This document shows, one piece after another, positions 2,128-59,822 of a stretch of DNA of 64,000 nt; position 1 is the first letter of the stretch, and every line of letters begins with the position of its first letter. Under the pieces are notes generated by a model. The model was not told the origin of the DNA. It saw nothing but the letters and a program-made list of their open reading frames with translations, and made no database searches. Position numbers and translations under genes: made by a program. The stretch comes from an uncultured virus (IMG/VR IMGVR_UViG_3300009085_000026) (taxonomy: Duplodnaviria; Heunggongvirae; Uroviricota; Caudoviricetes). The stretch lies in the IMG/VR virus record IMGVR_UViG_3300009085_000026. One strand, written 5' to 3'.

Positions 2128-2678
2128 TTATTGAATTTGTTCTCCTGCTTTTCTGGTTGATAGGTTCCTGGCAATTTCTTCTTTTTATCCTTGGAGGTCT
2201 TCTCCTTTCTCTTTGTGCCAGCCCAGCTTTTTATTTCTTTATCCACTCTTCTTAAGTTTTCCTTACCTTTTCCTTCTCTCCAGAACTTGGTTAAAAATTC
2301 TAAGTCTTGATAGGGAGCAGATTGAGTTAGTCCACCTAGCTCTTCTTGAACTTTTTTATTCTTCTTCTTTTTCTTATTAAATAGAAAATTAGTCTTCTGT
2401 TTGTACTTTGGCCTAGTTCCATTAAAAGTCTTACCTATATTACTATAGTTAGAGTTACCTCTTCTACCTTTACTAGTCATAGAGTCATAAGAGTCAACAT
2501 CTTGTTGCTCTTCCTCTTCATGGATTGTTATCTTTCTTTTCTTTTTCTTTTTAGTATCTTCTATATATCCAGCAGGAAGCTTTCTTCTGACGATCGGTGA
2601 CATAATCTTTTGAATGCCTCTAACAGCAGGAGATTGTGTAGCTGGAACTATTTGTTCTAGGATATCTTTTAATTTCAT
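2124..2678 (-). CDS. Lys-rich hypothetical protein, possible head/internal protein
   Basis: MKLKDILEQ N-terminus and poly-K tracts. Confidence 0.65.
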   Translation of the reverse strand: MKLKDILEQIVPATQSPAVRGIQKIMSPIVRRKLPAGYIEDTKKKKKRKITIHEEEEQQDVDSYDSMTSKGRRGNSNYSNIGKTFNGTRPKYKQKTNFLFNKKKKKNKKVQEELGGLTQSAPYQDLEFLTKFWREGKGKENLRRVDKEIKSWAGTKRKEKTSKDKKKKLPGTYQPEKQENKFNK

Positions 2679-4186
2679 ATGAAGTTCCTCTTTGCATTAG
2701 CGGCAGATTGAGTAGCTTGGTTTTTAACTTGCCCCGATGCCTTAGAAGCTTGACCTCCAACTTGAGTAGCGGTTTGTGAAGCCTTCTCCTTAACGTTAGA
2801 AGTTGCTTTGTCTGCAAGCTTTTTTTCTTCCTGAGAAACCATAGTCTGTGGCTGCCCTAATACTTTTTCTTTTCCGCCATCTAATACTCTGAATGTCCAA
2901 GAATTTAAGTTACCATTATTCTCACCAATTCTAGCATCTACCCAAACTTCGACTTCCATTTTGAACTGGCCTTCCATGGTTACTTCTACTTCTTTCTTAT
3001 TTATAGCTTCTACTTTTCTTTTAGCTAAAGTGAAATTAGCATCTTTTACAGCAAACCATTCATAGATATTATCTCTAAATATTCTATTGTCTGTTGATGC
3101 AGCTATACCACCAGGACTAAACCATTTATCAAGATTGTGGTTTAGCGACTTCAACATATCGCCACCTTTCCCAGTCTCTAGCTCTTCACCGGTCTTCTCT
3201 AACATAAGAGACCTTATATAAGAGCTAATACTTAGAGATTCTATTTTACTTTTATTTTTTTCTTCTTTCCTTTTCTTTTCATCAACAGCTTGTAATATCA
3301 TCTTAGCTTTTTCTTTGTCGCTCAATCCGCTAGTTGGAACTTTTTTATTTTGTAAAAAATCTTCTACAAAAGATTTAGCTTCTTTTGCTTTATATCCTTG
3401 GTTTCGGAGTACGCTAACAAAGTCGCCATAATATGGATGAGAGCTAGACTTTATGGGCTCAGATTCTTTTGCTGTTTCGCTGGGTTTAGATTTGGGCTCT
3501 ACCACCTTTTCTTTTTTTAATATTTTTGGCTGAGTCTTAGTCCAATTTCTTATATCCGCTAAATCGACGTCCAGAGGTATTTTTTTGCTTTCCCTCATAG
3601 AGTTTATGATTTCGGTTCTACCAGTTTTGCTAGTTCCGAATGTATTTATTTTTATTTTTTCTAGAGAAGCAAAAGACTTATCTTCTTCTGTAGATATTTT
3701 TATTTCTGCATCAGCATTCATGCTACCTGAGAGAATTATTCTAAATTGATAATCTGAATATTTGGCTGCTCTAGCTCCAGTTGCTTTTAAAGCTGGAAAG
3801 TATTTCTTTAATTCATTTACTACCTTTGCATTGGTAAGAGGCATAAATTGTTTTTTAGTTTTAGCTTCTTCTCTCCAGTCTGCACTATCTGGTGGAGTTG
3901 GCGAAGTATATAAATTTATAGTAGATAAGTATTGAATTTTAGTACCTGGGTCTATTGCTTTCCTATTTGTTCTTTGTTGAGCTTGCTGCTGTGGTTGCTG
4001 TGGCTGAGCTTGCTGCTGTGGTTGCTGTGCTTGTTGAGGCTGAGCTTGCTGCTGTTGTGGCTGAGCAGGAGTAACTTGTTGTCCTGCTGTATTAGGAGGA
4101 GGATCTTGCTCTGAAAGAAGTCCAATTAATCTACTAATTTTGTTCTCTAACATCTTTTCAATCTTCTTCATGTATTTTAACTCCAC
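2675..4186 (-). CDS. hypothetical protein with Q/P-rich repeat, possible virion protein
   Basis: 503 aa ORF with QPQQQ repeats near the N-terminus. Confidence 0.75.
   Translation of the reverse strand: MELKYMKKIEKMLENKISRLIGLLSEQDPPPNTAGQQVTPAQPQQQQAQPQQAQQPQQQAQPQQPQQQAQQRTNRKAIDPGTKIQYLSTINLYTSPTPPDSADWREEAKTKKQFMPLTNAKVVNELKKYFPALKATGARAAKYSDYQFRIILSGSMNADAEIKISTEEDKSFASLEKIKINTFGTSKTGRTEIINSMRESKKIPLDVDLADIRNWTKTQPKILKKEKVVEPKSKPSETAKESEPIKSSSHPYYGDFVSVLRNQGYKAKEAKSFVEDFLQNKKVPTSGLSDKEKAKMILQAVDEKKRKEEKNKSKIESLSISSYIRSLMLEKTGEELETGKGGDMLKSLNHNLDKWFSPGGIAASTDNRIFRDNIYEWFAVKDANFTLAKRKVEAINKKEVEVTMEGQFKMEVEVWVDARIGENNGNLNSWTFRVLDGGKEKVLGQPQTMVSQEEKKLADKATSNVKEKASQTATQVGGQASKASGQVKNQATQSAANAKRNFI
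3978..4068 (-). repeat. Imperfect coding tandem repeat (AQPQQQQ-type)
   Basis: Repeated gcttgctgctgtggttgctgtg units on the plus strand. Confidence 0.75.
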
Positions 4187-4773
4187 TGATCTTTATTTGT
4201 TCCTAAAACATTTTTAGCAACATTGGCTCCTATCATTAAAGTTAACAGAACAGATGCTTTAACTCTGATAGTTATTTTATTCATTTGTAAATCTACATCA
4301 TAAGTAAACCAATCCATATTGGCCACTTTCATTATTTTCATCTTCTCTGCAAAAATAGATTTATGATGGCTCTTCAGAAAATTCTTAAATCTAACTGTTA
4401 TGAATTGTTGTATGAAACCACCCTCAACATGAGAAGTTAAAGTAGCTGGTAATAAATATCTAAAATACCATACTAAGGTTCTTGGTATCTCAAAGAAAAC
4501 TTTAGGATCTTTTAAGAAATTAGCTTCTAGCCACTTATCACAATTAAAAGCTACAACGACTTCCCCGAAGTTAGCGCTTTTCACAGAAACAAACCCTTTA
4601 ACTATATCAACGTTCAATTGGTTTTCTACGAAGGCCCTTATTTCCTTATCGCTTACATCTTTACGAGTTATGTCCTGCATCCAAACTGGCATGATATACA
4701 TAAGGTATTCATTGCCAGTTGGTTTAGACCAGTAATAGTTGAGACTTAGGGGTATAATCTTATTTGCTGTCAC
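4177..4773 (-). CDS. hypothetical protein
   Basis: 198 aa coupled ORF. Confidence 0.7.
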   Translation of the reverse strand: MTANKIIPLSLNYYWSKPTGNEYLMYIMPVWMQDITRKDVSDKEIRAFVENQLNVDIVKGFVSVKSANFGEVVVAFNCDKWLEANFLKDPKVFFEIPRTLVWYFRYLLPATLTSHVEGGFIQQFITVRFKNFLKSHHKSIFAEKMKIMKVANMDWFTYDVDLQMNKITIRVKASVLLTLMIGANVAKNVLGTNKDQWS

Positions 4774-5641
4774 TATTATCTACTCCCGAAAGATCAAATA
4801 ATTCTAAATAGTTTAAATTGTTTAATTTTGCTAATTCTCTCTTTCTAACATCTAAATCTGTCCATACATCTATAGCTTTCTTATAATATTTTTTATTTTC
4901 AGAAAGCTTAGCCCATCTATTTATTTTTTTAATATGATTCTTGTTATTTTTGTTAAAAGCTTCTTTTCCGTGAACCCACGAGCCTTGAAATTCTATAAAT
5001 AAATCTTTTTCTGGTATATAAAAATCACAAGAAAATGGATATCTTTCGTCGCAATATTGTCTTATTACATTACTATATCGAGAAAGCAATATCCCATATA
5101 ACTTATCTTCTGGTTTAGAGGTGTGAAAAGTATTATTTTTCTTTTTTGTGTCATATATTTTCCCCAATATTATAGGAGACTTTGCAGGCACATCTACTCC
5201 ATATCTATCTATACAAGTTTGTTTGGCCTTTTCTTTAATTTTACTAAACTTCATTGGATTATCTACACCATATTTTTTAATTAAAGTTTTTTTAGTTTTA
5301 TTTTTATTATTGTTTGATTGAAAAGTATATTCAACTCCGTACTTCGTTAAACAAGTTTTTTTACTATTTTCCTTTACTATTTCTGATTTAGCCGGGTGAT
5401 CAACTCCATATTTTTCTATAGAGTTTATTTTTAATATACATCTAGAGCACAGAAATTCAAAATTTTTTAAAAATATTTTACTATAACTATTAGAGCAATT
5501 TTTACAAACAAAAAATATTCTATCTAATGTTCTGCATTTTCCTATGCTTTTTTCTTCTTTAGTTTTATGATCTATAATTTTTATAATTAAGTCTTTAAAG
5601 TTATTTAAAGACTCTTTAGTTTTACTTAGCTCACTGCTCAT
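4760..5641 (-). CDS. free-standing homing-endonuclease-like protein (YGVxx repeats plus C-terminal PD-(D/E)xK/Vsr-like domain)
   Basis: Four K/RYGV(D/E) repeats, CxxC pairs, C-terminal SKPE...CDFYI...FIEFQGSWVH; more AT-rich than neighbours. Confidence 0.7.
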   Translation of the reverse strand: MSSELSKTKESLNNFKDLIIKIIDHKTKEEKSIGKCRTLDRIFFVCKNCSNSYSKIFLKNFEFLCSRCILKINSIEKYGVDHPAKSEIVKENSKKTCLTKYGVEYTFQSNNNKNKTKKTLIKKYGVDNPMKFSKIKEKAKQTCIDRYGVDVPAKSPIILGKIYDTKKKNNTFHTSKPEDKLYGILLSRYSNVIRQYCDERYPFSCDFYIPEKDLFIEFQGSWVHGKEAFNKNNKNHIKKINRWAKLSENKKYYKKAIDVWTDLDVRKRELAKLNNLNYLELFDLSGVDNSDSK

Positions 5642-6044
5642 TATTTTTGTGTTTTTCCCTAGTTACAGTCTTTTCGTATTGTAGATTAAACATTCTCTTG
5701 AACTTGAAATCAGAGAAGAATCCCTCACCGGATATATTTCTAGAAGTAAATACTATAGTTGGCTCATGACCAGTTAGCGCTGCTATTTCATTTACTATGA
5801 AAACGCAAGCTATTGGTAAGCCAGGTAGGTTTACTACACATGGGCTATCGCCCAGTAAATAGCTCTTCTGACTTAATACTATATCGTGACATTGTATATA
5901 GGGGTTTTTGGATAAGTCTAGATTTACTTTCTTTAGTATTTGCTCTATTGAGTCTGCCTTAACTTCTTCTCTTATTTGCTCTACAGTATCATCCGACAAT
6001 TTAGCCCCAAAATTTAGTAAATATACTTTTTCATATTGTGACAC
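5631..6044 (-). CDS. Csx15-like protein (type III CRISPR-associated Rossmann-fold family)
   Basis: Pattern LLNF..L....EQI...LD...P..Q...P.VVNLPGL......EI...TG..P.I...F....NLQ.....R matches my recollection of Csx15; GTG start with AAGGTGG SD. Confidence 0.6.
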   Translation of the reverse strand: MSQYEKVYLLNFGAKLSDDTVEQIREEVKADSIEQILKKVNLDLSKNPYIQCHDIVLSQKSYLLGDSPCVVNLPGLPIACVFIVNEIAALTGHEPTIVFTSRNISGEGFFSDFKFKRMFNLQYEKTVTREKHKNNEQ

Positions 6045-6047
6045 AGT

Positions 6048-6094
6048 TGCTTACCACCTTTAGATGAACTTATGTATTTATCTTGTGGTAAGCA
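6048..6094 (-). promoter_or_regulatory. SD-sequestering hairpin enclosing a putative late promoter AAGATAA (6078-6084)
   Basis: Perfect 10-bp inverted repeat TGCTTACCAC/GTGGTAAGCA; the 3' arm overlaps the SD of 5631..6044. Confidence 0.75.
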
Positions 6095-6101
6095 GTGCAA
6101 A

Positions 6102-7013
6102 CTAAGCGAACAAAGAAACTACAGAATCAAAGTCCTCAATAAATTGTCGCAGCTTTTTCTCGAAAAAGAATGATAGCATTTTGTCTGTGCATACCGTTTT
6201 CGAGTTGTGAATTTCGTTTATATCTACAACAGCATTTACTAGATTGGGGTTATTTGATATGCGTATTAGCTTTAGGTTTCTGAGTACTATTAGCTGTTGC
6301 TCTTTATTAAGCTTGTCCGTAGCTAAATCATCTATAAAGTCTTCACCATAAAGCTCTTCTGATAGCTTAGCAGATTTGACTTCCCCATAGCCATAGATAC
6401 CTTCTATATCGTCGCTCTTATCACCCTTTATAGCCTTGTAGAGGCAGTAGTCATATGTCTTTGGAGATTCTACATACTTATCATTCACGGGATGATATAG
6501 CTTCACCTGGAAGTCTTGTACAGCCTGAATCATATCGCTATCACCAGAAACTATAGTTACTTCCCCTTGCTTACTCAGGTCTCTGGCAAAAACATACATT
6601 ATATCATCAGCTTCTAGCTTCTCTATCGACTCTTGTGTTACTGGATAGTATTTCAATAATCCCTGAAGGTTTCTAATACCCTCAAATAATACATTCCAAA
6701 CGGGGGCTATATCATAAGTTCGTCTGGACTTATATTCTGGATATATCTCCTTGCGCCACTCTGTAGAGCCTATATTGTCCCAACATACAATAAAATAGTA
6801 ATCCTTGAACTTCTTAAAAAACTTATGAAACTTTAGTAAGAAGACATGATACATCATGCTTTCTAAATCTTTATAGTCTTCCGCAACAAGCTCTTTCTTG
6901 TCTGGGCTTGTCTTTTGCTGTATCTTCAATAGTATTGACTTGCCTCTATGAAAAGCTATATGTGATAGGTTGTTCCCATCTAGCAATAAATACTTATTCC
7001 CCACTATTTTCAA
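6102..7013 (-). CDS. rnh: RNase H / 5'-3' flap exonuclease (T4 rnh-like)
   Basis: LLLDGNN, WRKEIYPEYK..R, EADD, SGDSD, GDKSDDI.G motifs. Confidence 0.9.
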   Translation of the reverse strand: MKIVGNKYLLLDGNNLSHIAFHRGKSILLKIQQKTSPDKKELVAEDYKDLESMMYHVFLLKFHKFFKKFKDYYFIVCWDNIGSTEWRKEIYPEYKSRRTYDIAPVWNVLFEGIRNLQGLLKYYPVTQESIEKLEADDIMYVFARDLSKQGEVTIVSGDSDMIQAVQDFQVKLYHPVNDKYVESPKTYDYCLYKAIKGDKSDDIEGIYGYGEVKSAKLSEELYGEDFIDDLATDKLNKEQQLIVLRNLKLIRISNNPNLVNAVVDINEIHNSKTVCTDKMLSFFFEKKLRQFIEDFDSVVSLFA

Positions 7014-14575: not shown

Positions 14576-15661
14576 CTATGTATATATGTCGTTGAATTGT
14601 TTTGTAACTCTAATGAAAGTAGTACACTTGCTCAACTGCTTTAGTGACGGAGCACCTATGTATGTACAGCAGCTCCTGAGACCACCAAGTATGTTTTGAA
14701 TAGTCTTTTCTACTGGACCTCTATATTCTACTTTCACTGTTCTTCCTTCTGACGATTTATAGTCAGCCATTCCACCATTATGCTTTTCCATAGCAGTAGT
14801 AGAAGACATACCATAGAAAATCTTGTATTTTTTCTCTATATCTAAGAATCCCATTTTGGAACCATCTAAATCTTTTAGTAGCTGGTCAGTTCTATGAAAT
14901 TCCGTTACAAGTTCGCCCCCACTTTCGTCGTGGCCAGCAAGCATTCCTCCAAGCATAACAAAATCTGCACCAGCTCCAAAAGCTTTAGCAACATCTCCAG
15001 GACAAGTACAACCACCATCAGATATTATGTGTCCACCAAGACCATGAGCTGCATCTGCACACTCTATAACAGCTGATAGCTGCGGATAGCCAACTCCAGT
15101 TTGAATTCTAGTAGTACAAGCTGAGCCAGAACCCAAGCCAACCTTTACGATGTCTGCCCCACTAAGAATAAGCTGTTCTGTCATCTCGGCGGTCACAACA
15201 TTACCAGCAACAATAGTAATCTTGGGATATTTCTTGCTTAGATCTCTTACAAACTCAGGTAGATATTCTCCGTATCCATTAGCAACATCAATACACACAA
15301 ATTTTAATCTCTCACTATATTGTTTATATAGCTCTTCAAAAACAGAAAGATCTTTTGAGTTAGCGCCAATACTTGGAGCAATATAATCAAATTCTATTCT
15401 GCGTCTTGACCAATCTAACGGAGTATAAAACTTGTGAGCAAAGGTAAGCATTTTGTTTTTAGCTAGAGCAGAATACATTTCAAAAGTTCCTATAGTGGCC
15501 ATATTGGCGGCCACTATAGGAGTACCCGTCCAAGTACTTTCTGAGTGTTTAAAAGTAAAAGTTCTACTAAGATCTACTTCTTTGCGAGACCTAAGAGTAC
15601 TTCTCTTAGGCTTAAACAACACATCCGAAAAATCTAATTTTAATTCGTCTACTATTCTCAT
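14576..15661 (-). CDS. guaC: GMP reductase
   Basis: [49 protein letters not shown] motifs. Confidence 0.95.
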
Positions 15662-15915: not shown

Positions 15916-16461
15916 TTACCCGAGAAGTACTTGCCCCTTAGGGTCGAGAGCGAGAATAGTCTTACAGCTAGGACAGCGATACTTCCCGGCCTTGATAGCC
16001 TTGAGCTTCTTGTCGCAAATGGGACAAGCAAATACTCGAGGATAGATGGAGTTCTTTGTATTGAGCTTCGCTTCGAAGTAAGTGATAGCATCTTCTCTAT
16101 ATTGGCCAAAGAAGAAGAACTGTTCGAAGCCGAGGATCTTGAAAATGTCCATGACTCTTGGACAAACCCCGACCATAGCCATGTTACCATTCAGAGTCCC
16201 AAGTGACTTATAGATAGCAGCACAAGCCCCAACGCCAGTGCTAGACATGTAGCTAACTCCGTAGCATACGAAGATGATATTAGTGTAACCGGCGTTGATA
16301 GCCATCTGGACTTTCTTTTGGAACCAAGAGGAATTGTAGGTGTCGATCTGACCCTTCATTTCGAAGGAGATGCACTTGGGAACTTTATCGATCTTCACCA
16401 AGTCGATGAAGAGGTCGTTGTTCTTTTCGTCATCGAATCCGATGATGATGTCTTTATTCAT
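15916..16461 (-). CDS. anti-sigma factor antagonist (STAS) with C-terminal Zn ribbon, copy 1
   Basis: GQIDTYNS, YMSSTGVG, IFKILGF, CPIC...CPSC; start set at the ATG after the GGAGGAG SD. Confidence 0.88.
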   Translation of the reverse strand: MNKDIIIGFDDEKNNDLFIDLVKIDKVPKCISFEMKGQIDTYNSSWFQKKVQMAINAGYTNIIFVCYGVSYMSSTGVGACAAIYKSLGTLNGNMAMVGVCPRVMDIFKILGFEQFFFFGQYREDAITYFEAKLNTKNSIYPRVFACPICDKKLKAIKAGKYRCPSCKTILALDPKGQVLLG

Positions 16462-16513
16462 ATAGCTCCTCCTTCTGACCAAACCAGCATAACTATGCGT
16501 CCTCCATAGTTAT

Positions 16514-16535
16514 ATTATAGATCAGAGTCGAAACT
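16514..16535 (-). promoter_or_regulatory. putative early promoter AGTTTCGAC-N7-TATAAT
   Basis: Copy of a motif repeated about 10 times. Confidence 0.8.
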
Positions 16536-17475
16536 ATTTCGGAGATATTATACTATTCTTTATTGAGTTAAATTCTGAATCCCACTTCTGATTGAAAATC
16601 TCTTTAAATATCTCTCTGTCTTTCTGCTTTTTGGCTTCAGCCAAAAGCATTATCTTGGTCCAGTCAGAAACGTATGGACTAGAGATATGGCTTATCCATT
16701 CAGAGAAAGCCCAACTACTTGGACGGACTGTTCTCGCTAACTCTTCTACTTCTTCTTTAACCTGTAGGTCTTTTATGATATCGGGAGTCCAGTGAGTAGT
16801 TTTTATTTTGAGCTTAGTGTAATCATCTGACCATTGTTCTATTAGCCTATCTACAAACTTCATCTCGTCTCGCTTTTTTTGATAATAAACTATAGATGCG
16901 ACCCAGTAAATATTTTTATATTCTATATTACTTTTAGCACACCAATACTTTAAGTAAGTACTATGGATGAAGATGTCGCTTGGGAGTATATTAATTGCAT
17001 CGTTGTTCCTCATCACGACTACCATGCTCATCTTATTGTCGTGTTCCATTATTGGCTGTAGAATTATAGTACATGGCTGGCGACTATCTATATTGTAGTC
17101 GGCCTTATCCCATACCATAACTATTTTATCTCTGCTATGGATCTTTTTGGAAAACATCCTTTCCATCTGACCATTTAATCTATCAGAGTAGTGATAGGAA
17201 AAAAGACCATCAAATTCTTTCCTGTTTTCCCAGTTCTTACTATAACGAGCGGCTATCCCAGGATTCTTTACACTGAATAATCTATCAGAGCACTCCCGTA
17301 AGATCCATGGCCAGTTCCTTTGTGAAAATGGGAAAAACAATATATTCTGGTCAATATTAGATAAAGTAAATGTGAGAAATGGTAATTCTTTTCTTTTACC
17401 TTTTATATGTCCAGAGCCTTGTAGATCTTTTAATATCTCAAAATAGGCATCATTTACATCTGAGAAACTTTTCAT
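16534..17475 (-). CDS. thymidylate-synthase-like pyrimidine modification enzyme (dCMP-type), copy 1
   Basis: QPCT catalytic Cys; MRNNDAINILPSD has Asp at the TS Asn177 position. Confidence 0.7.
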   Translation of the reverse strand: MKSFSDVNDAYFEILKDLQGSGHIKGKRKELPFLTFTLSNIDQNILFFPFSQRNWPWILRECSDRLFSVKNPGIAARYSKNWENRKEFDGLFSYHYSDRLNGQMERMFSKKIHSRDKIVMVWDKADYNIDSRQPCTIILQPIMEHDNKMSMVVVMRNNDAINILPSDIFIHSTYLKYWCAKSNIEYKNIYWVASIVYYQKKRDEMKFVDRLIEQWSDDYTKLKIKTTHWTPDIIKDLQVKEEVEELARTVRPSSWAFSEWISHISSPYVSDWTKIMLLAEAKKQKDREIFKEIFNQKWDSEFNSIKNSIISPK

Positions 17476-17960: not shown

Positions 17961-18515
17961 TCAGCCCAGATTAACCTTTGCCTCCTGAGAGACGGCAAGG
18001 ATTGTCTGGCACTCGGGACAGCGGAAGCGACCAGCCTTAGAAGCCCTGAGTCTCTTGGTGCAGATAGGACACTTGATGATGACAGGAAAGAGAGTCTCAG
18101 CTTTAGCAGCTACGGCTTTCTTGGTGAAGAAGTCGAAAGCGTTCTCGAGACTCTCCGCCATATTGAAAAACTGAGAGAAGCCGAGAAGCTGGAAGACCTC
18201 ATAGACCTTCGGCTGAATCTCCACCATGACCATGTCCCCGCCCTTGGGCTTCACCATCTTGAGGAAAGCCGTGAAGGAGCCGATACCAGTGCTGGACACA
18301 TAGGAGAGTCCAGCCATGTGGAAGATAATCTTGTCAAAGCCAGCATCGACTACCTTGCCGATCCTCTTCTGGAAGTAATTGCTGTTGTAAGTGTCAAGAT
18401 AGCCTGTGAGATAGATGGCAATCACTCCGGGAGAATCATCGAACTTCTGAAGCCTGATCTTACAGCTATCATCCTTCTCGTCATCAAATCCCTGAACGAT
18501 TTCGTTGTTCGTCAT
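17961..18515 (-). CDS. anti-sigma factor antagonist (STAS) with Zn ribbon, copy 2
   Basis: GYLDTYNS, YVSSTGIGSF, EVFQLLGFSQFF, CPIC...CPEC. Confidence 0.9.
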   Translation of the reverse strand: MTNNEIVQGFDDEKDDSCKIRLQKFDDSPGVIAIYLTGYLDTYNSNYFQKRIGKVVDAGFDKIIFHMAGLSYVSSTGIGSFTAFLKMVKPKGGDMVMVEIQPKVYEVFQLLGFSQFFNMAESLENAFDFFTKKAVAAKAETLFPVIIKCPICTKRLRASKAGRFRCPECQTILAVSQEAKVNLG

Positions 18516-20891: not shown

Positions 20892-22136
20892 TTAAGCTCC
20901 AATAGAGGTGATGCGAACTCCAAAGTTTTCAGAGTCCACTACTACAATCTCTCCCTTCGCTATTGGCTTCTGGTTGACAAGGATATCCACCTGTTCACCC
21001 TCGTGCTTATCAAGTTCTACGATGGTACCCTCAGCCATTTCCATGACTTCCTTGATTGGCTTCGTAGTTCGTCCAAGCTCAACTGTTATCTCCATATAGA
21101 TGTCATTCGGATTATTGCCAATAGTAGTTGACTTCTCAATAGCATCGAGCTTCTTAGTTATCTGTACAGCCATTTTTCGTCCAACCATTCCCGGACGGCA
21201 ATGGAACTTGTACTGATCATCAACCTTTAAGAAAAGAGGATCTTTGGGTCCAACATTGTTGAGCTTGATTATGTCGTCAACCTTTAAGGAAATGACGTCC
21301 TTCATTGGAATTTCCACCGATCCTACCTCGGCAATTACCTGGACATTAGCAGTAGCAAGTCTCTCTCTAAGCTGAGCGACATTTTCTAGATTTATTTCTT
21401 TTGGTGCAGAGATCATGAACTGAGTAGAAAGCTTAGGGATGATTGACTCGATTGTTACAAATGGGACGCAGAGGTTTATGAAACCCTCAACATCTTCCAT
21501 GCGAGTCTCAAGAGTAATGAAGAAGCACATCTCGTTATTGGGAACTATCTGGGCGAACTGAGGATTAGATTCAAAGCGAGAAAGCCTCGGTCGAAGTTCA
21601 ACTATAGTTTTCCACGCTTCCCTAAGCCCACCGAGAAGCTTAACTACAGTTCCTTCCATGACTGAAGTTTCAATCTCCGTAAGCTCTCTATCCCTTTTTG
21701 ATTGAGCAACTGACTTGCTCACGGAACCCATGAGCCTCTCAATGATGAATGAGGTCAGGTTCGTATCGATTTCCAAAACGATAGCTCCCTTGAGGGGATC
21801 CATTTCAACTATAGCAAGTGTAGTCGATTTATAGGTGGACCTGATAAACTCTTCATAAGCAAGCTGGTCGACTGATGCCACAACGACATGAGCTGGGACA
21901 TGAAGACTTGCCGCTAGAACATTTGAGGTTAAGCGAGCGAAGACCTCGTGCATCATCCTTACTGTCCGAGTCTGCTCTTTCGAAAACTTGTCAGGACGAT
22001 TGAAGTCATAAATCTTGATCTTGCGCTGACGATCTATCTTGCCTGGTACTTCCTCGAGAGTTGGGAGCTCTCCCATAGAAATAGCCTGAAGCATTTGATC
22101 CATCTCTTCGTTTGTAAGAATCTTCGAATCATTCAT
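20892..22136 (-). CDS. fliM: flagellar motor switch protein FliM fused to an extra FliN-like SpoA domain
   Basis: [11 protein letters not shown] (CheY-binding-like), [35 protein letters not shown], then a second SpoA domain ITVELGRT...[16 protein letters not shown]...[16 protein letters not shown]. Confidence 0.92.
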
Positions 22137-22160
22137 ATCATTTGCCCCCCAACAATCCTT

Positions 22161-22182
22161 ATTATACATCTATGTCGAAGCT
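22161..22182 (-). promoter_or_regulatory. putative early promoter upstream of fliM
   Basis: AGCTTCGAC-atagatg-TATAAT. Confidence 0.8.
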
Positions 22183-25247: not shown

Positions 25248-25985
25248 TTATATTTCTATTTTGATAAACTTTTTTGCATTAGGGAACGAGCCATTGTAGG
25301 ATTTTCCAACTTTGCCAAAGTTGCTATGTACGTGGCCAAACAGGTGGAGTCTCGGTCTCTTCATATAGATCAAGTTCTTTAGTGGCTTGCTACCTATATT
25401 TACTATTTTATCGGTTAATCCAAAGGTAGAATCGAGAATTCCATGAGGAGGAGAATGAGTTATTAGAATAGTGTTGTTATCAATAAGGGGAGCAATCTTT
25501 TGAAGATCTTCTTCTTGTTCTAGCTCGTTCTTTTCTAGACTAGTCCATTGATAGCCAACGAAATTGTATTTGCCGAAATTGTATTTCTTGTTGTGAGCGT
25601 TGTAAATGTTAGCGCCATTCTTCCAAAGGCAATAATCGTGATTTCCCCTTACTACAAAGATGGGCTTCTTTGCTGTTGCAAGAATAGCTCTTATTTGAGC
25701 TTCTCTAATATCAAGGGCTCTAAACAAGATTCCTTCTCTGTTGTCTATTTTCTTGTGGATTCTTTTAAGTGTTTCGTCTGCATCTTCGTCAGCAATCGGC
25801 AAATCCTGAAGGAAGTCGTTCACTGTAGTTGGCATCATTTTCTTGATTTCGCCCTCAGAGATATAGTCTTCCATCAAGTCGCCAGCGATTACGCCAACAT
25901 CATAATCCCTTTCTTTGAGGAGTTTGGCAAACCACTCATAAGCTTTGATGTAGCTGTGTAGATCTGCCGTGAACAAGATCTTCAT
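25248..25985 (-). CDS. calcineurin-like metallophosphoesterase, apparently leaderless
   Basis: DLH, GDL, GNHD, THSPP, GHVH motifs. Confidence 0.9.
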   Translation of the reverse strand: MKILFTADLHSYIKAYEWFAKLLKERDYDVGVIAGDLMEDYISEGEIKKMMPTTVNDFLQDLPIADEDADETLKRIHKKIDNREGILFRALDIREAQIRAILATAKKPIFVVRGNHDYCLWKNGANIYNAHNKKYNFGKYNFVGYQWTSLEKNELEQEEDLQKIAPLIDNNTILITHSPPHGILDSTFGLTDKIVNIGSKPLKNLIYMKRPRLHLFGHVHSNFGKVGKSYNGSFPNAKKFIKIEI

Positions 25986-26068: not shown

Positions 26069-29000
26069 TTACTGAGGAATGCAATTGGGCACTTTAGGAC
26101 TGCCTCCATTATTTCCACCATGACCCCATTCGCTAGGGTTGTCCATGGGATTACTTTCTCTTAGATCCATTGATTCCCAATCAATATTGATCATGCCAAT
26201 ATTTTTGCTCCAAATGTTTTCCATCATTGCCCGAAGACTTTCATAATCTTTTCTAGTCATAGAACCTTGGCCGATCTCAAACAAATAGCCCTCGTATAAT
26301 AAGTCTAAAAAATTATATGCCGCCGTCGGGCCTCTAGCAGGAGTAAGACCAAGTTCATGTTCATTTATTTCGCATTCATATATGATACCGTCTGGACCAG
26401 CCATCCAATTAAGAAACAAGGCGCCATAGATCGGGTCACTTCTAATTGGAATACCCAAATTGGACCAATAATGTTTAGAGCCACTAGAAGAATAATCCCA
26501 ATGCATTCCCGCTATAAAGCCATTGAGAGTTTTATCTCCGAGATCTACTTTACCAATTATATCGCTTATAGAAAAATGACAATAAAAATCACAATTAAAT
26601 GGATCACTTGATCTTTTTAGCCACATCCTGCCATTACCATCCTCAATCGCTAAAGAGTGATCTGGATGCGTATGCCAAGTTCCAATATATTCATAATTCT
26701 TGGAACATCCCCTATCGGTCCACTCTTCCGACCATGTCCAGGCCGAGACACCTGCTACACAAAACGTCGGACCTTGTTCAACTATGGGAGTCGAGAAGTA
26801 TCTGTTGGTTTCCTTATTGTAAAAAATATCTCCGGTCGTTTCAAAATTTCCAGATAAACCCGTAATTAGAGCTATAGACATTGCATCTCTAACGGCTGCT
26901 TGAGGAGTTTTAAATTCATCTCCTGGAGCTTTACCATCAAAATCCATTAAATTGACGGGATCGTTTAAACAATAATTATAAGAAGATCCTACTTTATCTT
27001 CTGTTAAAAATCTATGAATAATTGGATCATAATATCTAGCGTTAAAATAGTATAGTCCAGATTTATCTAACTCTTTATCAGTAAATCTAGCTTTCCCACT
27101 GTCCCCGGAGGTCAATTCTCCCCAAGTATCATAGGTAAAGCTGTTTTCTATGTTGCCCGAAGAATCCGTTATGTTTTTTCTAGAAAATAGATTATCCACA
27201 TAGAAATACTTTAATTCTTCACTTGGAGGGTCATAAGTTTTAATGAAGGCCCCCATAGTAGCTTTTCCAGTTAGTAGATTAAATACTGATTCTATCAAAG
27301 TGGAATCTTCATATGTTTCTTTTAAAAGTATTTGATCTCCGGAATATAAATAATATATTGTTTGAGCATTACCAGATCTAGCATATTCCTCTTTTTTTAT
27401 TCTTAAGCCGGAAATATTATACGAATATTTATCTTTATTACCGCCAATATACTCTATCTCTCTTAATCTATTTAGTCCATCATGAGACATTTTATTAAAT
27501 CTATCAGAAACTTTAAATACATTACCTTCGTTGTCATAAGTTATATCCCAGTTTGTAGAATTAAAAGAATCTTGAAAGTTTCTTAATCTTTTTTGATTCT
27601 TATAAATAGAATTTTTTGTATCGCTATCTAACAATTCATAGGTCCAAGTTTTGGTTCCAACAGTTAGCAAATTAGAAACTTTATCGTAATCATAAGTCTT
27701 GCTACCTAAGCTTTCACTATAGAGTCTGTTCATCCCGTCATAAGCATAATTATTTTCTGATCCTAAGTTGTCGTCTCGAGTTATTATATTGCCTAAAAAG
27801 TTTTTGACAAAAGTCATATCTGATATGTTAGCATCACTATTGTTAATAGAAGATAATCTCGCGAATTCGTCATAATCAAAAGAAATTGTTGTACCCGATC
27901 CATATTCAATATAATTCAAACTTCCATCAAATCCTAAAACATTTTTGAATATCGGAGACGAACCATCCGAGTTTGCAGAAAGAATAGAAAAATTATAATT
28001 GTAAACATCGGGATTTGGGTGCCACTGAGAATTTAAATATAAAGTTTTTGTCCAAGGAGAAGCTCCAGAGCCAATCACCGTTATACTTAGTATTGTCCCG
28101 TCGGCGCTATAAGCTTTTTGAACTCTCATCGTTTTATCATCAATTGTTTGAGCAAATTCAGTTACGGATCCAAAATTGTTATATTTGCTCGAGTTTAAAA
28201 CTATAGAAGTTAAACCCTCTTTTTCTTCTGAAGTTGCTATGCCAAATTGACAATATTTCTGTACAATTTCTATATCAGGAGTTCCGTGTGTAATTTGTTT
28301 TTCTACCCCATCTCTGTCATTGTATTCATAAGTTGTTAAAATTCCTCTTCTGTTTGTATTAGCAACATTTGATCCGTTTTTATTAAAATTGTTTATCAAC
28401 GTAGTTCCATCTGAATAGACTACTTTTTCTAGGGAACCTGCCGAAGAAAACATATAGGAAACAAATTCACCAACATTATTTGTCCCATTTGGTTGTTGAA
28501 AGCTTATTAACCTTCCAGAATAATCATAAACATTAGTAGTTATCAACTCATCACCTGTTGCATTTTTGTCAGTCCAACAGTGAGTAGTTTTAGCTCCTCT
28601 ACCCAACCAATCGCTAATCTGTTTGGTTTGTATATAGTTTGTGGCATCTTCATATGATTTGTTGATAACATAATTTTCATCATCTTTATAATAACTATTA
28701 GAAATGTGTCTTTCCGTGCCATTTCCGTCTATTATGTTGGTATAATAAGAGTCAACCACTCTTCCAAGGTTATCATAAACGTTTCGTGTTAAACCATAAT
28801 GATTTGTTTCATAAGAGCTTGGAGAGGCTCCGGTAGCTTCATTAAATACTCTATTAGCTATTGGCTTGTTGAATACGGGTTCATAGTCAGTTTCCGAAAT
28901 TCCTATTAGATAAGCTGTTACTCCTCCTTGGCTATCTTCCCAATCTATTCCAGCATTTTCGATATTTGGCTTCCACTTATAAACAGATGTTGGCCTATAT

Positions 29001-31864
29001 AATTGATCATATTGAATTATATTTCTGAATCCAAGAGAATCAGTTGTCGTCAATCTTCTATTAGAATCATCATAGGTATTTTTAATCAAAAATGTTTCTA
29101 CTGAATCAACTATTGAAGATTTAGTTAACATTCTGCCTTCTCCATCATAAGTATACTGTATTGTATTCTTTGGATAATCGGAAGAATATTCTGTTTCGCC
29201 ATCTGCCTGAGTCATATAAGATTCTTTTTTCACAAGTCTCCCTAAGATATCATAATCAAATGAATTAATTATGTGTTCGTGATCTTCTGAGTCTAGATTG
29301 TTCGTCATTTGTTGATCGTCTTTTACAACAAATGAAGATTTCCAAGAGGGACTAGTACCATAAATAATAGAGAGTATGTTTCCCAGAGGTCTAGTAATAG
29401 AAATTAAGTTGTTAGTTGTTCCATCATAAGCATAGGCAGTAGTTGGATATCGAACTCCATCTGAATAACCTAAACTAGAATCAAATATTTCCTCTGTATT
29501 TAGAGTAGTTCTATCGACTACTTGAATGTGCACTAAATTTAAAGAAGAATCGTAATCGTTAAAAGTACAACTGTCATTATCGGGATCGTCATCGTTCATT
29601 TTTCTAATAGCGCCCGCTAAGCCCATACACTTATAAGTACTAAAACGAGATGCATAGGTTGCTCCACTTGTACCAGCATAAGGATTGCTAAAAGGAGCTG
29701 TACCAAATTTAGAGTAAGGATCGGATTCGCCAGTCCAGAATGCTACATGTTGATACCAAGTATATTGAGGAGTACCAGCTGAACCTTCAACCTTATATGA
29801 TCGTTTTACGTGACCATAAGAATCATAATCCATGTTGTCAGAGTATTTTTCTGTGCCACCAGTAACACTATCATCGCTAACAAAGAATCTTGTTTTTGTG
29901 ACCTCATAATAATCGGTGACATTAGCAGAGGCAGTATTAACGTTAGCTGTTTTATTTAAAAAAATCCAATCTGAGCCATTCCAAACATAATTTTTAGTTT
30001 GAGAAGTTCCCTTATAGGTAGTAGTAGATTGATCGTGAAAAATAACAGTTTTAGTTTTATTTGTAGAAGTAGGAGCACTAGATCCCTTTTCCATAGTAGT
30101 AATAGTAGTACTATACGGGTGGTATGTATGATGTTGAGTGGTGTATTCTTCTATATAGCCCTCTCCCGAACAATAAAAAGAATAATCATAATCAATCTGT
30201 TTCCAAGTAGCTACACTAGAACTAGCCTTTGTTACTACATTTTCAACTGCTGGCTTATTCATTCTAGAAATGCCTGACTCATAATGTGGCGGCTCATAGT
30301 TGTCGTCTATGTAACTCCAAGAATCTTCTCTGTAACAGATTTCTCTAAAAGTATAAACAATTGTGGCTTCCCCAGAGTCGTTTGTTATAGTAAAAGTATC
30401 ACCAGCTGGAGTAGTGTTAAAAGTATTTGAATAAGCAACTTCTTGCAATGCAGAGAAATAAGTAGATTCACTAGTTTGTATCTTAGTTGCTGTAAAAGAG
30501 GTATCTTCAGCAAAAGCAGTAGAATCAAGAGCCTCATACTTGTCTAGCCAGCTATTAGCAGCAGTAGTGCTAGATAGAGAGTATCTACCTATAAACTTGT
30601 CCCCAGCTCTTAAAATACCATTACTAGTATTGTCAGAGGAAACCATAGATACAAAGACTCGTTTAGAAGATATTGAATAATAATAGAACTTGATAGCACG
30701 GCCATCTGTATGAGCGATTCTATCTAATTGATAGGTAGGATCTGAGCCCGACCAAGTGTATGTTAAAGTATTTTTATTTGTAGGATCGCTCAAAGTAGCT
30801 ATTTTACCAGAGCTATCAAAAGTGGCATATTTGCCATCAGAAAAATAAAGTACTACCGTGTCGGCTGTAGTATCCCACCAATAATCATAATAGCCATCTC
30901 CAGGTGGACTATCTATATAGTGCTCTGTCATTGTTACTTCATAGTGAATAACGGCTTTTTCTTCAGGGAGTCTTATATCTATATGCATATGAACACCAGC
31001 CGTTATTACAGTACAATCATAATAGCCAGCTCCATACCAAGTAGAAGCTCCAGATCCTGGATCGACGGGAAGGTTATATTTTCTACCAGATGGGAGAGTA
31101 ATTGCAAAATTCTCTTCACCAGGAGATACATAAGGAAGTTGCCAATTCCACCCTTTTGCAAATCTATAGTGAGAATTTGCGGTAGTACTAATTGGTGAAC
31201 CCGTACTATCGCTAGTTGGAGAACCATCGTCTCCCAAAATTATATTATAAACTAAGTCAGAGCTAAATTTTGACGAGACCGATAAGCCTATTCCCCTAGC
31301 AGATACGGAAACATCATTTCGACTCATCGAAAGACCGCCAAAATAAGGATCTACACTAGCTATAATTGGCAATCCAGAAAGAGTACCAGATTCATCTACT
31401 TTATAAGAACCCATACCAGGAGTATAATCAGTAAAGTGTTCAACTTCAACTGTGATAGTTTTATTTTCTAAATCTTGACTAATTTTCTTTGTTGGTCTCC
31501 AAGATTTTGTTCCCTCATGATAATATAGAACTTGAATGAGATTTTCTTGCTCAAAATCTACAGGGCATTCATAAGGAATAGTTAAAGAGGCGGGAGCTAA
31601 AAACTTTAATCGGTTTGGTCCAAATCTATAAATATTTCCAAACTTTTTTAACTGTTCTTTTTCAATAAAAGCATTAAATTTCTCGAATTTAATTTGACTA
31701 GATTTTTCTTTGAGATTAGAAAAATCTAGATTATATGAATCAAACTCTAATTTAACTTTTTCGGAAGACAAGCTATTAGGTCCCTCTGTGAAAGTAAAAA
31801 CTTTTTCATCAAGCTTTTCAAGTCCATTACAATATTTAAAGGGAGCATTCAAAATCTCTGCCAT
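26069..31864 (-). CDS. Rhs/YD-repeat protein with ZU5-like N-terminus and JAB-like/DUF4329-like C-terminal domain
   Basis: YD repeats; core end FTDKELDKSGLYYFNARYYDP..RFLTED..YNYCLNDPVNLMDFDG; C-terminal E...WHTHP...FS.SD; N-terminal FGP..LKF..PASLTIPY...VEHFTDY. Confidence 0.88.
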   Translation of the reverse strand: MAEILNAPFKYCNGLEKLDEKVFTFTEGPNSLSSEKVKLEFDSYNLDFSNLKEKSSQIKFEKFNAFIEKEQLKKFGNIYRFGPNRLKFLAPASLTIPYECPVDFEQENLIQVLYYHEGTKSWRPTKKISQDLENKTITVEVEHFTDYTPGMGSYKVDESGTLSGLPIIASVDPYFGGLSMSRNDVSVSARGIGLSVSSKFSSDLVYNIILGDDGSPTSDSTGSPISTTANSHYRFAKGWNWQLPYVSPGEENFAITLPSGRKYNLPVDPGSGASTWYGAGYYDCTVITAGVHMHIDIRLPEEKAVIHYEVTMTEHYIDSPPGDGYYDYWWDTTADTVVLYFSDGKYATFDSSGKIATLSDPTNKNTLTYTWSGSDPTYQLDRIAHTDGRAIKFYYYSISSKRVFVSMVSSDNTSNGILRAGDKFIGRYSLSSTTAANSWLDKYEALDSTAFAEDTSFTATKIQTSESTYFSALQEVAYSNTFNTTPAGDTFTITNDSGEATIVYTFREICYREDSWSYIDDNYEPPHYESGISRMNKPAVENVVTKASSSVATWKQIDYDYSFYCSGEGYIEEYTTQHHTYHPYSTTITTMEKGSSAPTSTNKTKTVIFHDQSTTTYKGTSQTKNYVWNGSDWIFLNKTANVNTASANVTDYYEVTKTRFFVSDDSVTGGTEKYSDNMDYDSYGHVKRSYKVEGSAGTPQYTWYQHVAFWTGESDPYSKFGTAPFSNPYAGTSGATYASRFSTYKCMGLAGAIRKMNDDDPDNDSCTFNDYDSSLNLVHIQVVDRTTLNTEEIFDSSLGYSDGVRYPTTAYAYDGTTNNLISITRPLGNILSIIYGTSPSWKSSFVVKDDQQMTNNLDSEDHEHIINSFDYDILGRLVKKESYMTQADGETEYSSDYPKNTIQYTYDGEGRMLTKSSIVDSVETFLIKNTYDDSNRRLTTTDSLGFRNIIQYDQLYRPTSVYKWKPNIENAGIDWEDSQGGVTAYLIGISETDYEPVFNKPIANRVFNEATGASPSSYETNHYGLTRNVYDNLGRVVDSYYTNIIDGNGTERHISNSYYKDDENYVINKSYEDATNYIQTKQISDWLGRGAKTTHCWTDKNATGDELITTNVYDYSGRLISFQQPNGTNNVGEFVSYMFSSAGSLEKVVYSDGTTLINNFNKNGSNVANTNRRGILTTYEYNDRDGVEKQITHGTPDIEIVQKYCQFGIATSEEKEGLTSIVLNSSKYNNFGSVTEFAQTIDDKTMRVQKAYSADGTILSITVIGSGASPWTKTLYLNSQWHPNPDVYNYNFSILSANSDGSSPIFKNVLGFDGSLNYIEYGSGTTISFDYDEFARLSSINNSDANISDMTFVKNFLGNIITRDDNLGSENNYAYDGMNRLYSESLGSKTYDYDKVSNLLTVGTKTWTYELLDSDTKNSIYKNQKRLRNFQDSFNSTNWDITYDNEGNVFKVSDRFNKMSHDGLNRLREIEYIGGNKDKYSYNISGLRIKKEEYARSGNAQTIYYLYSGDQILLKETYEDSTLIESVFNLLTGKATMGAFIKTYDPPSEELKYFYVDNLFSRKNITDSSGNIENSFTYDTWGELTSGDSGKARFTDKELDKSGLYYFNARYYDPIIHRFLTEDKVGSSYNYCLNDPVNLMDFDGKAPGDEFKTPQAAVRDAMSIALITGLSGNFETTGDIFYNKETNRYFSTPIVEQGPTFCVAGVSAWTWSEEWTDRGCSKNYEYIGTWHTHPDHSLAIEDGNGRMWLKRSSDPFNCDFYCHFSISDIIGKVDLGDKTLNGFIAGMHWDYSSSGSKHYWSNLGIPIRSDPIYGALFLNWMAGPDGIIYECEINEHELGLTPARGPTAAYNFLDLLYEGYLFEIGQGSMTRKDYESLRAMMENIWSKNIGMINIDWESMDLRESNPMDNPSEWGHGGNNGGSPKVPNCIPQ

Positions 31865-34000: not shown

Positions 34001-34007
34001 TTATCTT
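34001..34007 (-). promoter_or_regulatory. putative late promoter AAGATAA for the fibre-Rhs operon
   Basis: Intergenic motif upstream of a GGAGG SD; more copies at 34043 and 34053. Confidence 0.5.
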
Positions 34008-34062
34008 GGTGATAGAAAAATATTTTTTAAATTAGATACTGATTATCTTTTTTTATCTTCGC

Positions 34063-35092: not shown

Positions 35093-35896
35093 CTAAATTT
35101 TTTCCCTAAGCTTAAGAATCTGTATATCACCCTTGAACATATGTAGCGAAAAACAATGGAAAGTTAAATTACCAATAGATACATCATTCCAAAAATTATC
35201 AATGCCCCTAAGCTTTTCCAACATCCACTGATTAAGTCTACAAGCCATATAGATATCATCTCTAAGATACCTTACCGCATCGCAACTTCTTATAATATAG
35301 AAGACATTTAGCTTGTTATCTCTCATCATAAAGTGGTATCCAAGTGTACAGGGCACTCTTTTGCCATGAGCATCACCAGTATCTTCGGGGTGCCATATTG
35401 TTAGATAAGCTTGACGAGTATATGGATCTTTCTTTAACAGATCTACAACATCATTTAAATCACCGTAGGGGAATCTAATGCCACTTCTTACGGTTTTATC
35501 ATCTGTATATTTTGGCCAAAATCTCTCAGCATAAGTGTGGGAAAACTTTTCGCCATCTATCTCTATTGAAAAATTACTCTGGTTAGGTCTCCAGAATGGC
35601 CACCTAACATATGAAGGCATTGGATTTAATGGGATGCCAGACACTCTTTCGTCGAACTGTTCATCGGCCCACTTTACATTTGGACTACACTGAGATCGAA
35701 GATCTTCTATAGAATCTGGTATTGGCGCACTAAAAACTATATCCTGTACTTCAAAAGATTTAAACTCGTCCTTCTCAATCTTTTGAGCTTGCCAATATTT
35801 ATTATCAATTGGTTTACCAGAATTAAGTAAATATTCTAAAGAATTCCTTATGGCCTCTGACAAGCTAAAAAACATATTTGGATTTATTTCTTGCAT
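35093..35896 (-). CDS. thymidylate-synthase-like pyrimidine modification enzyme (dCMP-type), copy 2
   Basis: DPYTRQAY, RVPCTLGYHF, IRSCDAVRYLRDD, SLH. Confidence 0.8.
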   Translation of the reverse strand: MQEINPNMFFSLSEAIRNSLEYLLNSGKPIDNKYWQAQKIEKDEFKSFEVQDIVFSAPIPDSIEDLRSQCSPNVKWADEQFDERVSGIPLNPMPSYVRWPFWRPNQSNFSIEIDGEKFSHTYAERFWPKYTDDKTVRSGIRFPYGDLNDVVDLLKKDPYTRQAYLTIWHPEDTGDAHGKRVPCTLGYHFMMRDNKLNVFYIIRSCDAVRYLRDDIYMACRLNQWMLEKLRGIDNFWNDVSIGNLTFHCFSLHMFKGDIQILKLREKI

Positions 35897-35919
35897 CTTT
35901 TCTCCTGAAACAATATATG

Positions 35920-37831: not shown

Positions 37832-37840
37832 AATATCCTC

Positions 37841-42206: not shown

Positions 42207-42490
42207 AAGATCACCTCCTTTACACTATTAGCTTCATAAATTTCTATATAACCCTTGCTTAGTTTTTCTCTTATTTTACTATTTACATAATGAAGAGCTT
42301 GTCTTTCGCTATACATTTCTTTTACGTCGCGGACCTCTTTTTTACCTATTCTACCATAAGTTGCAACAATCTTTTTACCTTGAAGACTTATGTGATAGAA
42401 CTTGTAGTGCTCATCTAAAGTATGGACAAATAGTCTACCCTGCCCATACTTAAGCATTAGCTTAACCTTGTCCTTCTGTGCTATATCCAT
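42203..42490 (-). CDS. WGR-domain protein
   Basis: HYKFY......YGRIG.....A....K..EKLSKGY.E. Confidence 0.75.
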   Translation of the reverse strand: MDIAQKDKVKLMLKYGQGRLFVHTLDEHYKFYHISLQGKKIVATYGRIGKKEVRDVKEMYSERQALHYVNSKIREKLSKGYIEIYEANSVKEVIL

Positions 42491-49431: not shown

Positions 49432-49449
49432 GAGATTATCTTGTAGAAA

Positions 49450-52987: not shown

Positions 52988-52995
52988 ATTAACTC

Positions 52996-59761: not shown

Positions 59762-59776
59762 GTTTCCACCATCAAT

Positions 59777-59804: not shown

Positions 59805-59822
59805 CTATAAAGATTTGTTTTC

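Follow-up and report, generated by a model that had tools for sequence, protein, structure and literature searches.

The uncultured caudovirus record IMGVR_UViG_3300009085_000026 (IMG/VR) carries a gene for a 137-amino-acid (aa) protein of the Csx15 family in which both functional histidines of the family are lost. We analysed a stretch of 64,000 nucleotides (nt) of this DNA (the window). By sequence comparison, the phage protein is a true but divergent Csx15 homologue, and its gene belongs to the syntenic core of a lineage of large phages, in which its place is fixed. We tentatively read the protein, with slightly less than even confidence, as a non-catalytic binder of cyclic oligonucleotides, a sponge that would counter type III CRISPR and possibly the cyclic-oligonucleotide-based anti-phage signalling system (CBASS).

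Family membership, fold and lost residues

5631-6044, minus strand: Csx15-like gene, 137 aa, GTG start, stop codon included

The gene was confirmed as a 137-codon open frame on the minus strand, a strand which an earlier reading of the DNA made from its letters alone (the sequence-only reading) had not given. The Shine-Dalgarno sequence AAGGTGGT lies 8-10 nt 5' of the GTG start. All the motifs listed in that reading are present in the protein: LLNF (residues 9-12), QI (23-24), P48..Q51, VVNLPGL (70-76), E86...G92..P95 and F..NLQ...R129. The likeness to Csx15 goes well beyond chance. The NCBIfam profile NF040560 (CAS_Csx15, equivalog) matched the protein at E 6.1e-7 over profile positions 1-124 of 125, and the PADLOC Csx15 model matched it at E 6.5e-4. 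Among 1.84 billion representatives, an exhaustive phmmer search turned up 19 proteins. NF040560 was matched by 18 of these 19 at E <= 0.01, and nine scored over its curated cutoff (P0069, P0071-73, P0075, P0077, P0083, P0085 and P0086); the NCBI name of P0083 is Csx15. The search with the canonical P0083 yielded four proteins only, and the canonical Csx15 profile is therefore thin. When 25 sequences of the phage clade were compared by HHalign with the four canonical Csx15 sequences, we obtained a match probability of 97.8% (E 1.1e-12, 121 columns). A family profile of 17 representatives matched three chains of the PDB, 9teu (E 1.7e-6), 9ylu (4.8e-6) and 9tet (6e-5). The 9ylu chain is the Csx15 domain of CbCash, and 9teu and 9tet were assigned to CliCsx15 and PfCsx15 via numbering offsets.

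Other searches were silent. Pfam and PHROGs gave no match to the 137-aa protein at E <= 10, single-sequence phmmer against the PDB returned chance rows only, and tblastn against 50,697 phage records found nothing at E <= 0.01. A further profile search added few sequences, none of them with a family name, and "hypothetical protein" is the one label on the cluster members. The ESM Atlas gives the name Csx15 to the cluster that is second-nearest (score 0.91), which we take as a lead only. The viral family PF23992 (Pam3_gp32-like) stands just under the Csx15 clusters there at 0.89, likewise a lead only, in this case to another phage family that may share a similar fold, and Pfam gave no match to it. 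One metagenomic relative, P0075 (283 aa), contains tandem histidine-less Csx15 domains (NFGGA and NFGDK), and two of its stretches match NF040560. This duplication resembles the duplicated-Csx15 group which bioRxiv 10.64898/2026.10.26.761840 ties to the origin of SAVED.

The AlphaFold2 model of the protein (mean predicted local distance difference test score, pLDDT, 93.6) has a five-stranded sheet with flanking helices, in the strand and helix order of Csx15, and confidently predicts a Rossmann-like, Csx15/SAVED-like fold. The top match in the VIA structure search was the viral SAVED ring nuclease 9r8s (Z 7.5, root-mean-square deviation 3.3, 110 residues aligned), followed by the SAVED domains of Cap5, TIR-SAVED and Cap14 (Z 6.6-7.2) and then by CARF proteins. 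SAVED and CARF chains fill most of the top rows with Z 5-7.5. These values are middling (below 8), and they agree with the relatedness of the Csx15 fold to SAVED and CARF stated in the Csx15 papers (bioRxiv 10.64898/2026.10.26.761840; bioRxiv 10.1101/2024.09.24.614671). Lesser likenesses were to Argonaute MID domains (Z 6.4-6.5) and Toprim-like domains (Z 5.2-5.3). No solved Csx15 chain surfaced in the Foldseek or VIA structure searches. In Foldseek searches of the PDB and BFVD no match reached E <= 0.001; at the top stood a protein of an uncultured archaeal virus (1.2e-3) and the Cap4 SAVED domain (4.1e-3). A predicted complex of four copies with four adenosine monophosphates scored ipSAE 0.00 and 0.00; it was run without controls and bears neither way on oligomerisation.

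The canonical Csx15 motifs are LNF[SGT]HP and AELHGR. The usual motif NFSHP given in the sequence-only reading is thus correct, as is its change to NFGAK in the phage protein. This change takes out the catalytic histidine, and the second functional histidine is gone as well. We counted residues in the close homologues (n=68; 67 at position 14). The head histidine (H8 in HaCsx15 and CsCsx15, H13 in CliCsx15, H11 in PfCsx15) corresponds to Ala14, which is alanine in 67/67. The central histidine of the ELHG motif (H90 in CliCsx15, H82 in PfCsx15) corresponds to Ala88; at this position the homologues have threonine (30), alanine (20), serine (13), glutamate (4) or cysteine (1), and histidine in 0/68. 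Among the 17 aligned representatives, the first histidine is kept in two, the second in two and both in one. Since so few keep a histidine, the histidine-less state marks a whole divergent wing of the family. The mutation H8A in HaCsx15 is reported to abolish cleavage while cA4 (cyclic tetraadenylate)-driven multimerisation stays (bioRxiv 10.64898/2026.10.26.761840), and H13A in CliCsx15 likewise to abolish cleavage (bioRxiv 10.64898/2026.01.21.700848). With both histidines gone, binding is therefore favoured over cleavage, which the sequence-only reading had put forward as a possibility.

Other features of the family are retained. Phe113 (phenylalanine in 67 and tyrosine in one of 68) aligns with Y113 of CliCsx15, F106 of PfCsx15 and F275 of CbCash, which is the adenine-stacking aromatic. 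The basic C-terminal helix is largely retained, with K/R125 (lysine in the window protein), R129 and K133 each in 68/68. The canonical arginine triplet of the tail face (R118/R122/R125 in HaCsx15, R116/R120/R123 in PfCsx15) aligns with K/R125, R129 and position 132; the latter is phenylalanine in 64/68 and histidine in the window protein, flanked by K/R131 and K133. The loops at the C-terminal ends of strands beta1-beta4 (NFGA, KVNLDLSKNPY, NLPGLP and TSR) are invariant or nearly so. In total, 35 positions are invariant across the 68 homologues, among them His53, Arg102 and Arg117, and K/R15 is found in 63/67.

Conservation, synteny and the upstream hairpin

A word-indexed search gave at least 68 clusters (90% identity) of the phage protein, 63-89% identical, all metagenomic and on contigs of up to 178 kb. 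Two clade members come from IMG/VR contigs, one of 106 kb and one of 158 kb, and metagenome contigs gave 13 further loci. Loci L009 and L002 represent a single contig stretch and count as one, which leaves 14 distinct loci; L016 (31% identity over residues 47-108, E 2e-4) was left out of the locus analysis. No clade member was found in prokaryotes, for which one genome each of 185,579 species was searched. A second histidine-less clade (P0080, motif NFSEL), 24-27% identical, was located on an 81-kb IMG/VR contig (L017, 8001-8426, plus strand). IMG/VR scans with P0071, P0072, P0073 and P0082 gave no locus, P0080 being the only one that did. The clade is old and deep within phages; the capture of a CRISPR accessory gene proposed in the sequence-only reading is one possible direction of transfer.

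6102-7013, minus strand: 5'-3' exonuclease (FEN/RNase H type), the conserved upstream neighbour
4760-5641, minus strand: free-standing homing endonuclease (phrog_3339, DUF7487), overlapping the stop of the Csx15-like gene by 11 nt
4177-4773, minus strand: conserved 198-aa protein, the usual immediate downstream neighbour in related phages

In 14/14 related loci no gene is as well conserved as the Csx15-like one, with 66-79% identity against at most 69% for those neighbours that are mostly covered. The gene is under strong purifying selection: the ratio of nonsynonymous to synonymous substitution rates (dN/dS) was 0.02-0.27 in all 25 pairs (of 78) with dS below 3, and 0.10-0.15 in the three least diverged pairs. 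The 5'-3' exonuclease lies upstream in all 12 loci that reach far enough, with a gp32-like single-stranded DNA-binding protein (SSB) nearby; in L001 and L002 an extra open reading frame (ORF) stands between the exonuclease and the Csx15-like gene. The 198-aa gene follows directly downstream in all 12 loci that extend far enough. Its product gave an AlphaFold2 model with pLDDT 82.5, a best fold match of Z 4.7, a best Foldseek E of 0.16 and, in the ESM Atlas, a lead only (0.75). The homing endonuclease is missing from all 14 related loci and is therefore an insertion in the window phage. Its site fits homing beside a highly conserved target sequence.

The 57-nt gap upstream of the Csx15-like gene (6045-6101) contains a 9-bp stem, GCUUACCAC/GUGGUAAGC, and an 8-mer, CAAGATAA.

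6049-6057, minus strand: hairpin 3' arm GUGGUAAGC, holding the Shine-Dalgarno core GGUGG at 6054-6058
6085-6093, minus strand: hairpin 5' arm GCUUACCAC, the anti-Shine-Dalgarno segment
6078-6085, minus strand: CAAGATAA motif, 8-mer invariant in 14/14 homologous upstream regions, candidate phage promoter element

The hairpin has a folding energy of -19.3 kcal/mol (z -2.67), and one of 200 shuffled sequences folded as well. The Shine-Dalgarno sequence and the GTG start are, like CAAGATAA, invariant over the 14 upstream regions. Their consensus fold is weak (five pairs), but L005 shows one compensatory change in it, and there are several wobble changes. When the regions are folded singly, the mean pairing probability of the Shine-Dalgarno sequence is at least 0.59 in 14/14 loci and at least 0.89 in 11/14, with z <= -2 in 8/14. 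The hairpin was ruled out as a terminator: no T-run follows it, and neither a terminator nor a sigma-70-type promoter was matched in 6045-6101.

As a generally enriched word CAAGATAA was ruled out too (7 found against 5.6 expected). Its placement is non-random: in the window and six loci, where the noncoding share is only 5-16%, 12 of the 15 coding-strand copies are intergenic and at most 60 nt upstream of a start. Copies 4-36 nt before starts were found in the window at 6078-6085, 34001-34008 and 49436-49443 (minus strand) and at L004:2399, L006:1776 and L008:3073, and some of the genes they precede are unrelated to the Csx15-like gene. This makes CAAGATAA a candidate phage promoter element. 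In read-through transcripts the stem would pair the Shine-Dalgarno sequence with the segment just 5' of CAAGATAA and occlude translation, while transcripts begun at CAAGATAA would lack the 5' arm and be translated freely. A similar two-transcript layout is known for several T4 genes. The proposal that the gene heads a late operon under hairpin control thus holds for the stem over the Shine-Dalgarno sequence, predicted in 14/14 loci, and perhaps for the promoter; for the operon head we found neither a terminator nor a sigma-70 match, and the neighbours are of the replication type.

Binding, cleavage or a role in replication

Several known systems resemble the phage protein. PfCsx15, an orphan from Pseudomonas fluorescens (PDB 9tet), has been put forward as a cA4 sponge that works by dimer stacking (bioRxiv 10.64898/2026.01.21.700848) and is matched by the profile of the phage family. 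However, it keeps H11 and H82, where the phage protein has alanine at both positions, and it is cellular, not viral. The Csx15 domain of CbCash (PDB 9ylu) lacks both histidines (NFLQP, AEMQGR) and still binds cA4, forming dimers and filaments, with F275, the counterpart of Phe113, stacked on adenine (PMC13462974). It differs in being fused to a Schlafen tRNA nuclease and in serving the host, and the phage protein has Leu76 and Asn41 in place of its F241 and R204. The canonical ring nucleases HaCsx15, CsCsx15 and CliCsx15 (9teu; NF040560) have the same family, length and shared positions (LNF, Q51, VNLPGL, E86..G..P95, L121..R129), but the phage protein lacks their head and central histidines and lies in a phage, not in a CRISPR locus.

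Viral homologues have been described in part. The preprint bioRxiv 10.64898/2026.10.26.761840 counts over 20 viral Csx15 homologues, all metagenomic, as candidate anti-CRISPRs under the tentative name "AcrIII-3", a name that we found in no other literature; it calls them rare, places most of them in prophage regions and anticipates ring nucleases. According to bioRxiv 10.64898/2026.01.21.700848, phage genomes showed no Csx15. The gene studied here is likewise a Csx15 homologue on a viral genome, as shown by its phage genes and the syntenic 106- and 158-kb IMG/VR contigs. The clade differs from what is described for AcrIII-3 by its at least 68 clusters, by being a core gene of non-integrated large phages and by the absence of catalytic residues. 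The idea of a viral Csx15 as an anti-CRISPR is thus already partly in print, and the histidine-less, core-gene clade would be the added variant. AcrIII-2 (9r8s), also viral and directed against type III systems, is the best structural match through its C-terminal subdomain, but it has two fused subdomains, an active His128/Arg site and 6% sequence identity to the phage protein. The phage cyclic-nucleotide sponges Acb2, Tad1 and Tad2 share with the protein studied here the proposed action, sequestering an immune second messenger; they have another fold and no sequence relation (0 Pfam and 0 PHROG matches at E <= 10).

In the sponge reading, the phage protein would still bind a cyclic oligonucleotide, most likely cA4 by homology, with cA3 (cyclic triadenylate)-type CBASS signals possible. 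As it has neither an effector domain nor catalytic residues, it would sequester the alarm signal of the host, perhaps via filament stacking as in PfCsx15, and so blunt type III CRISPR effectors and possibly those of CBASS. CBASS is a possible target because Csx15 pockets are reported to take cA3 and CBASS trinucleotides as well (bioRxiv 10.64898/2026.10.26.761840), and sponges are argued to be better against low-abundance signals (bioRxiv 10.64898/2026.01.21.700848). The nucleotide-metabolism genes of the window hint at modified DNA. Phages shielded from DNA-targeting systems are still exposed to RNA-guided type III systems, and a fixed anti-type-III gene would therefore make sense.

Several observations weigh against a sponge. 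The protein scores 29.7 bits with NF040560, short of the curated cutoff of 35. Of the three cA4 contacts of CbCash, just one is kept: F275 is Phe113, but F241 is replaced by Leu76 and R204 by Asn41. In PfCsx15 the mutation H11A is reported to abolish cA4 binding, and in CliCsx15 H90A to abolish cA4-induced oligomerisation and nearly all activity, so that the loss of both histidines could abolish the canonical binding mode; the same source argues that type III systems make too much cyclic oligoadenylate for sponging (bioRxiv 10.64898/2026.01.21.700848). The conserved GTG (14/14) and the predicted occlusion of the Shine-Dalgarno sequence do not suggest the very high expression that a stoichiometric sponge needs. 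The gene is also a fixed core gene amid replication genes, unlike the patchy accessory anti-defence genes, and the second histidine-less clade has UvsX, SbcCD, a DNA methyltransferase, RusA, DnaB and a DnaE-type polymerase as neighbours in L017.

As for the CRISPR context, the sequence-only reading had seen neither cas genes nor an array, and we obtained the same: 0/83 ORFs of the window matched Cas models at E <= 1e-5, and scans for tandem and direct repeats found no CRISPR-like array in it. About 25% of cellular Csx15 genes are themselves reported as not linked to Cas10 or a type III locus (bioRxiv 10.1101/2024.09.24.614671). Of the proposed orphan anti-defence gene, the Csx15 family, the phage, the missing CRISPR locus nearby and the loss of both histidines are borne out. 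A core gene among replication genes whose conservation exceeds that of its neighbours speaks against a typical accessory anti-defence gene.

That setting suggests a different role, the main rival of the sponge, in which a Csx15/SAVED-derived protein would be a nucleotide- or nucleic-acid-binding part or regulator of phage replication, recombination or nucleotide metabolism without any part in defence. We regard this as unlikely, though it has to be taken seriously. It would account for the fixed place beside the exonuclease and near the SSB (12/12 loci), for a conservation above that of those replication genes (14/14), for the neighbours of the second clade and for the loss of both canonical histidines, and it agrees with the likeness of the fold to Argonaute MID and Toprim-like domains. 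However, the sequence homology is specific to Csx15, all characterised members of which bind cyclic oligoadenylates, the conserved residues fall on the loops and the aromatic of the known ligand site, and no replication family in Pfam or PHROGs was matched (0 at E <= 10). A ring nuclease that still cuts through other residues, i.e. the invariant His53, Arg102 and Arg117 (68/68) or Lys/Arg15 (63/67), seems improbable to us. Csx15 active sites are reported to be composite and remodelled on filament formation (bioRxiv 10.64898/2026.10.26.761840), the best fold match is the viral ring nuclease AcrIII-2, and both preprints expect viruses to prefer degradation over sponging (bioRxiv 10.64898/2026.10.26.761840; bioRxiv 10.64898/2026.01.21.700848). 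But a single H8A or H13A is reported to kill activity in three tested Csx15 enzymes, and His53 sits 1.5 turns into helix alpha2 in the AlphaFold2 model.

The protein might also read the signal instead of removing it. There is a slim chance that it is a phage-owned receptor for the cyclic-oligoadenylate alarm of the host, a core gene of the replication module by which the phage programme is adjusted when type III CRISPR or CBASS fires. Such a receptor could act through the 198-aa protein or through ligand-driven filaments, and its expression could be gated by transcripts with an occluded or a free ribosome-binding site. A pure sensor, which binds a host alarm nucleotide and signals to a phage partner such as the adjacent 198-aa protein so that the programme changes when immunity fires, we consider very improbable. 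The 198-aa gene is directly downstream in 12/12 loci, the Csx15 domain is reported to act as the sensor in Cash (PMC13462974) and expression seems restrained; still, there is no fused effector domain, the 198-aa neighbour has no recognisable fold or family, and the window phage tolerates a homing endonuclease between the two genes. Barely probable, finally, is a poison subunit or decoy that co-assembles with Csx15, SAVED or Cash filaments of the host and blocks their activation or turnover. Csx15 and Cash are reported to work as head-to-tail filaments with composite sites, which a histidine-less subunit would cap or inactivate, but the identity to the representatives that keep a histidine is only 24-34%, so that the interfaces of host filaments are unlikely to match.

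Other genes of the window and significance

The genes of the window lie nearly all on the minus strand, and their content is that of a large phage. It includes the gp32-like SSB, the 5'-3' exonuclease, a DnaE-type polymerase, a dCMP deaminase, a dUTPase-like enzyme, two divergent thymidylate-synthase-like genes, a CCA-adding enzyme, a peptide deformylase, and HNH and homing endonucleases. No deposited phage has a polymerase more than 33% identical to the one found here. The polymerase is split into two ORFs (47410-48771 and 49450-51684, minus strand) that match positions 44-440 and 441-1045 of phrog_405, with two small ORFs between the halves (48794-49431); the polymerase of L017 is a single ORF of 1120 aa. 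The split may be due to an intron or a mobile-element insertion.

Nucleotide-metabolism genes lie at 35093-38464, 16534-17475 and 52433-53496 (minus strand) and include four tandem phrog_1574 paralogues with a weak likeness to glycosyltransferases. Together, these paralogues, the thymidylate-synthase-like pair, the dCMP deaminase and the dUTPase/dCTP-deaminase-like gene look like a DNA base hypermodification module. Auxiliary genes of the kind usual in very large phages were found as well, namely the CCA-adding enzyme with an HD domain (45138-46454), the peptide deformylase (59285-59932), Hsp20 (42556-42978), a WGR-domain protein (42203-42490) and an IMPDH/GMP-reductase homologue (14576-15661), all on the minus strand.

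Some genes resemble those of a host. A flagellar switch protein with FliM and FliN domains (20892-22169, minus strand; Pfam E 1.7e-61 and 2e-40) has its best genome match in the FliM of a Bacillota metagenome-assembled genome (40% identity), a weak hint at the host. Two STAS-domain proteins (15916-16482 and 17961-18515, minus strand) and a hybrid PAS histidine kinase with a receiver domain (38875-40779), the sole large ORF on the plus strand, are host-like signalling genes. A calcineurin-like metallophosphoesterase (25248-25985, minus strand) also matches the PADLOC candidate model PDC-S10 (E 2.4e-22). On the minus strand, too, are a 1931-aa ORF at 26069-31864 with a weak match to RHS repeats only, adjoining ORFs of 989 and 683 aa without a family match, and, at 2675-4186, a 503-aa protein. 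The latter has a low-complexity N-terminal part rich in glutamine and proline, with imperfect 21-36-nt repeats at 3974-4066, and is kept yet fast-evolving among related phages (25-40% identity).

Viruses are known to counter the signalling of type III CRISPR with ring nucleases. Known sponges are directed against CBASS and Thoeris, and none is known against type III systems. If the clade binds cA4, it would represent a different solution, a filament-type sponge without cutting residues in a populous and strongly constrained phage clade. The compact, easily expressed 137-aa protein offers a direct route to ask whether sponging beats type III signalling. Should the protein fail to bind cyclic nucleotides, the Csx15 fold would have a second role in phage DNA metabolism. 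If the sponge reading is true, a CRISPR-associated fold can serve as a core gene of a phage lineage.

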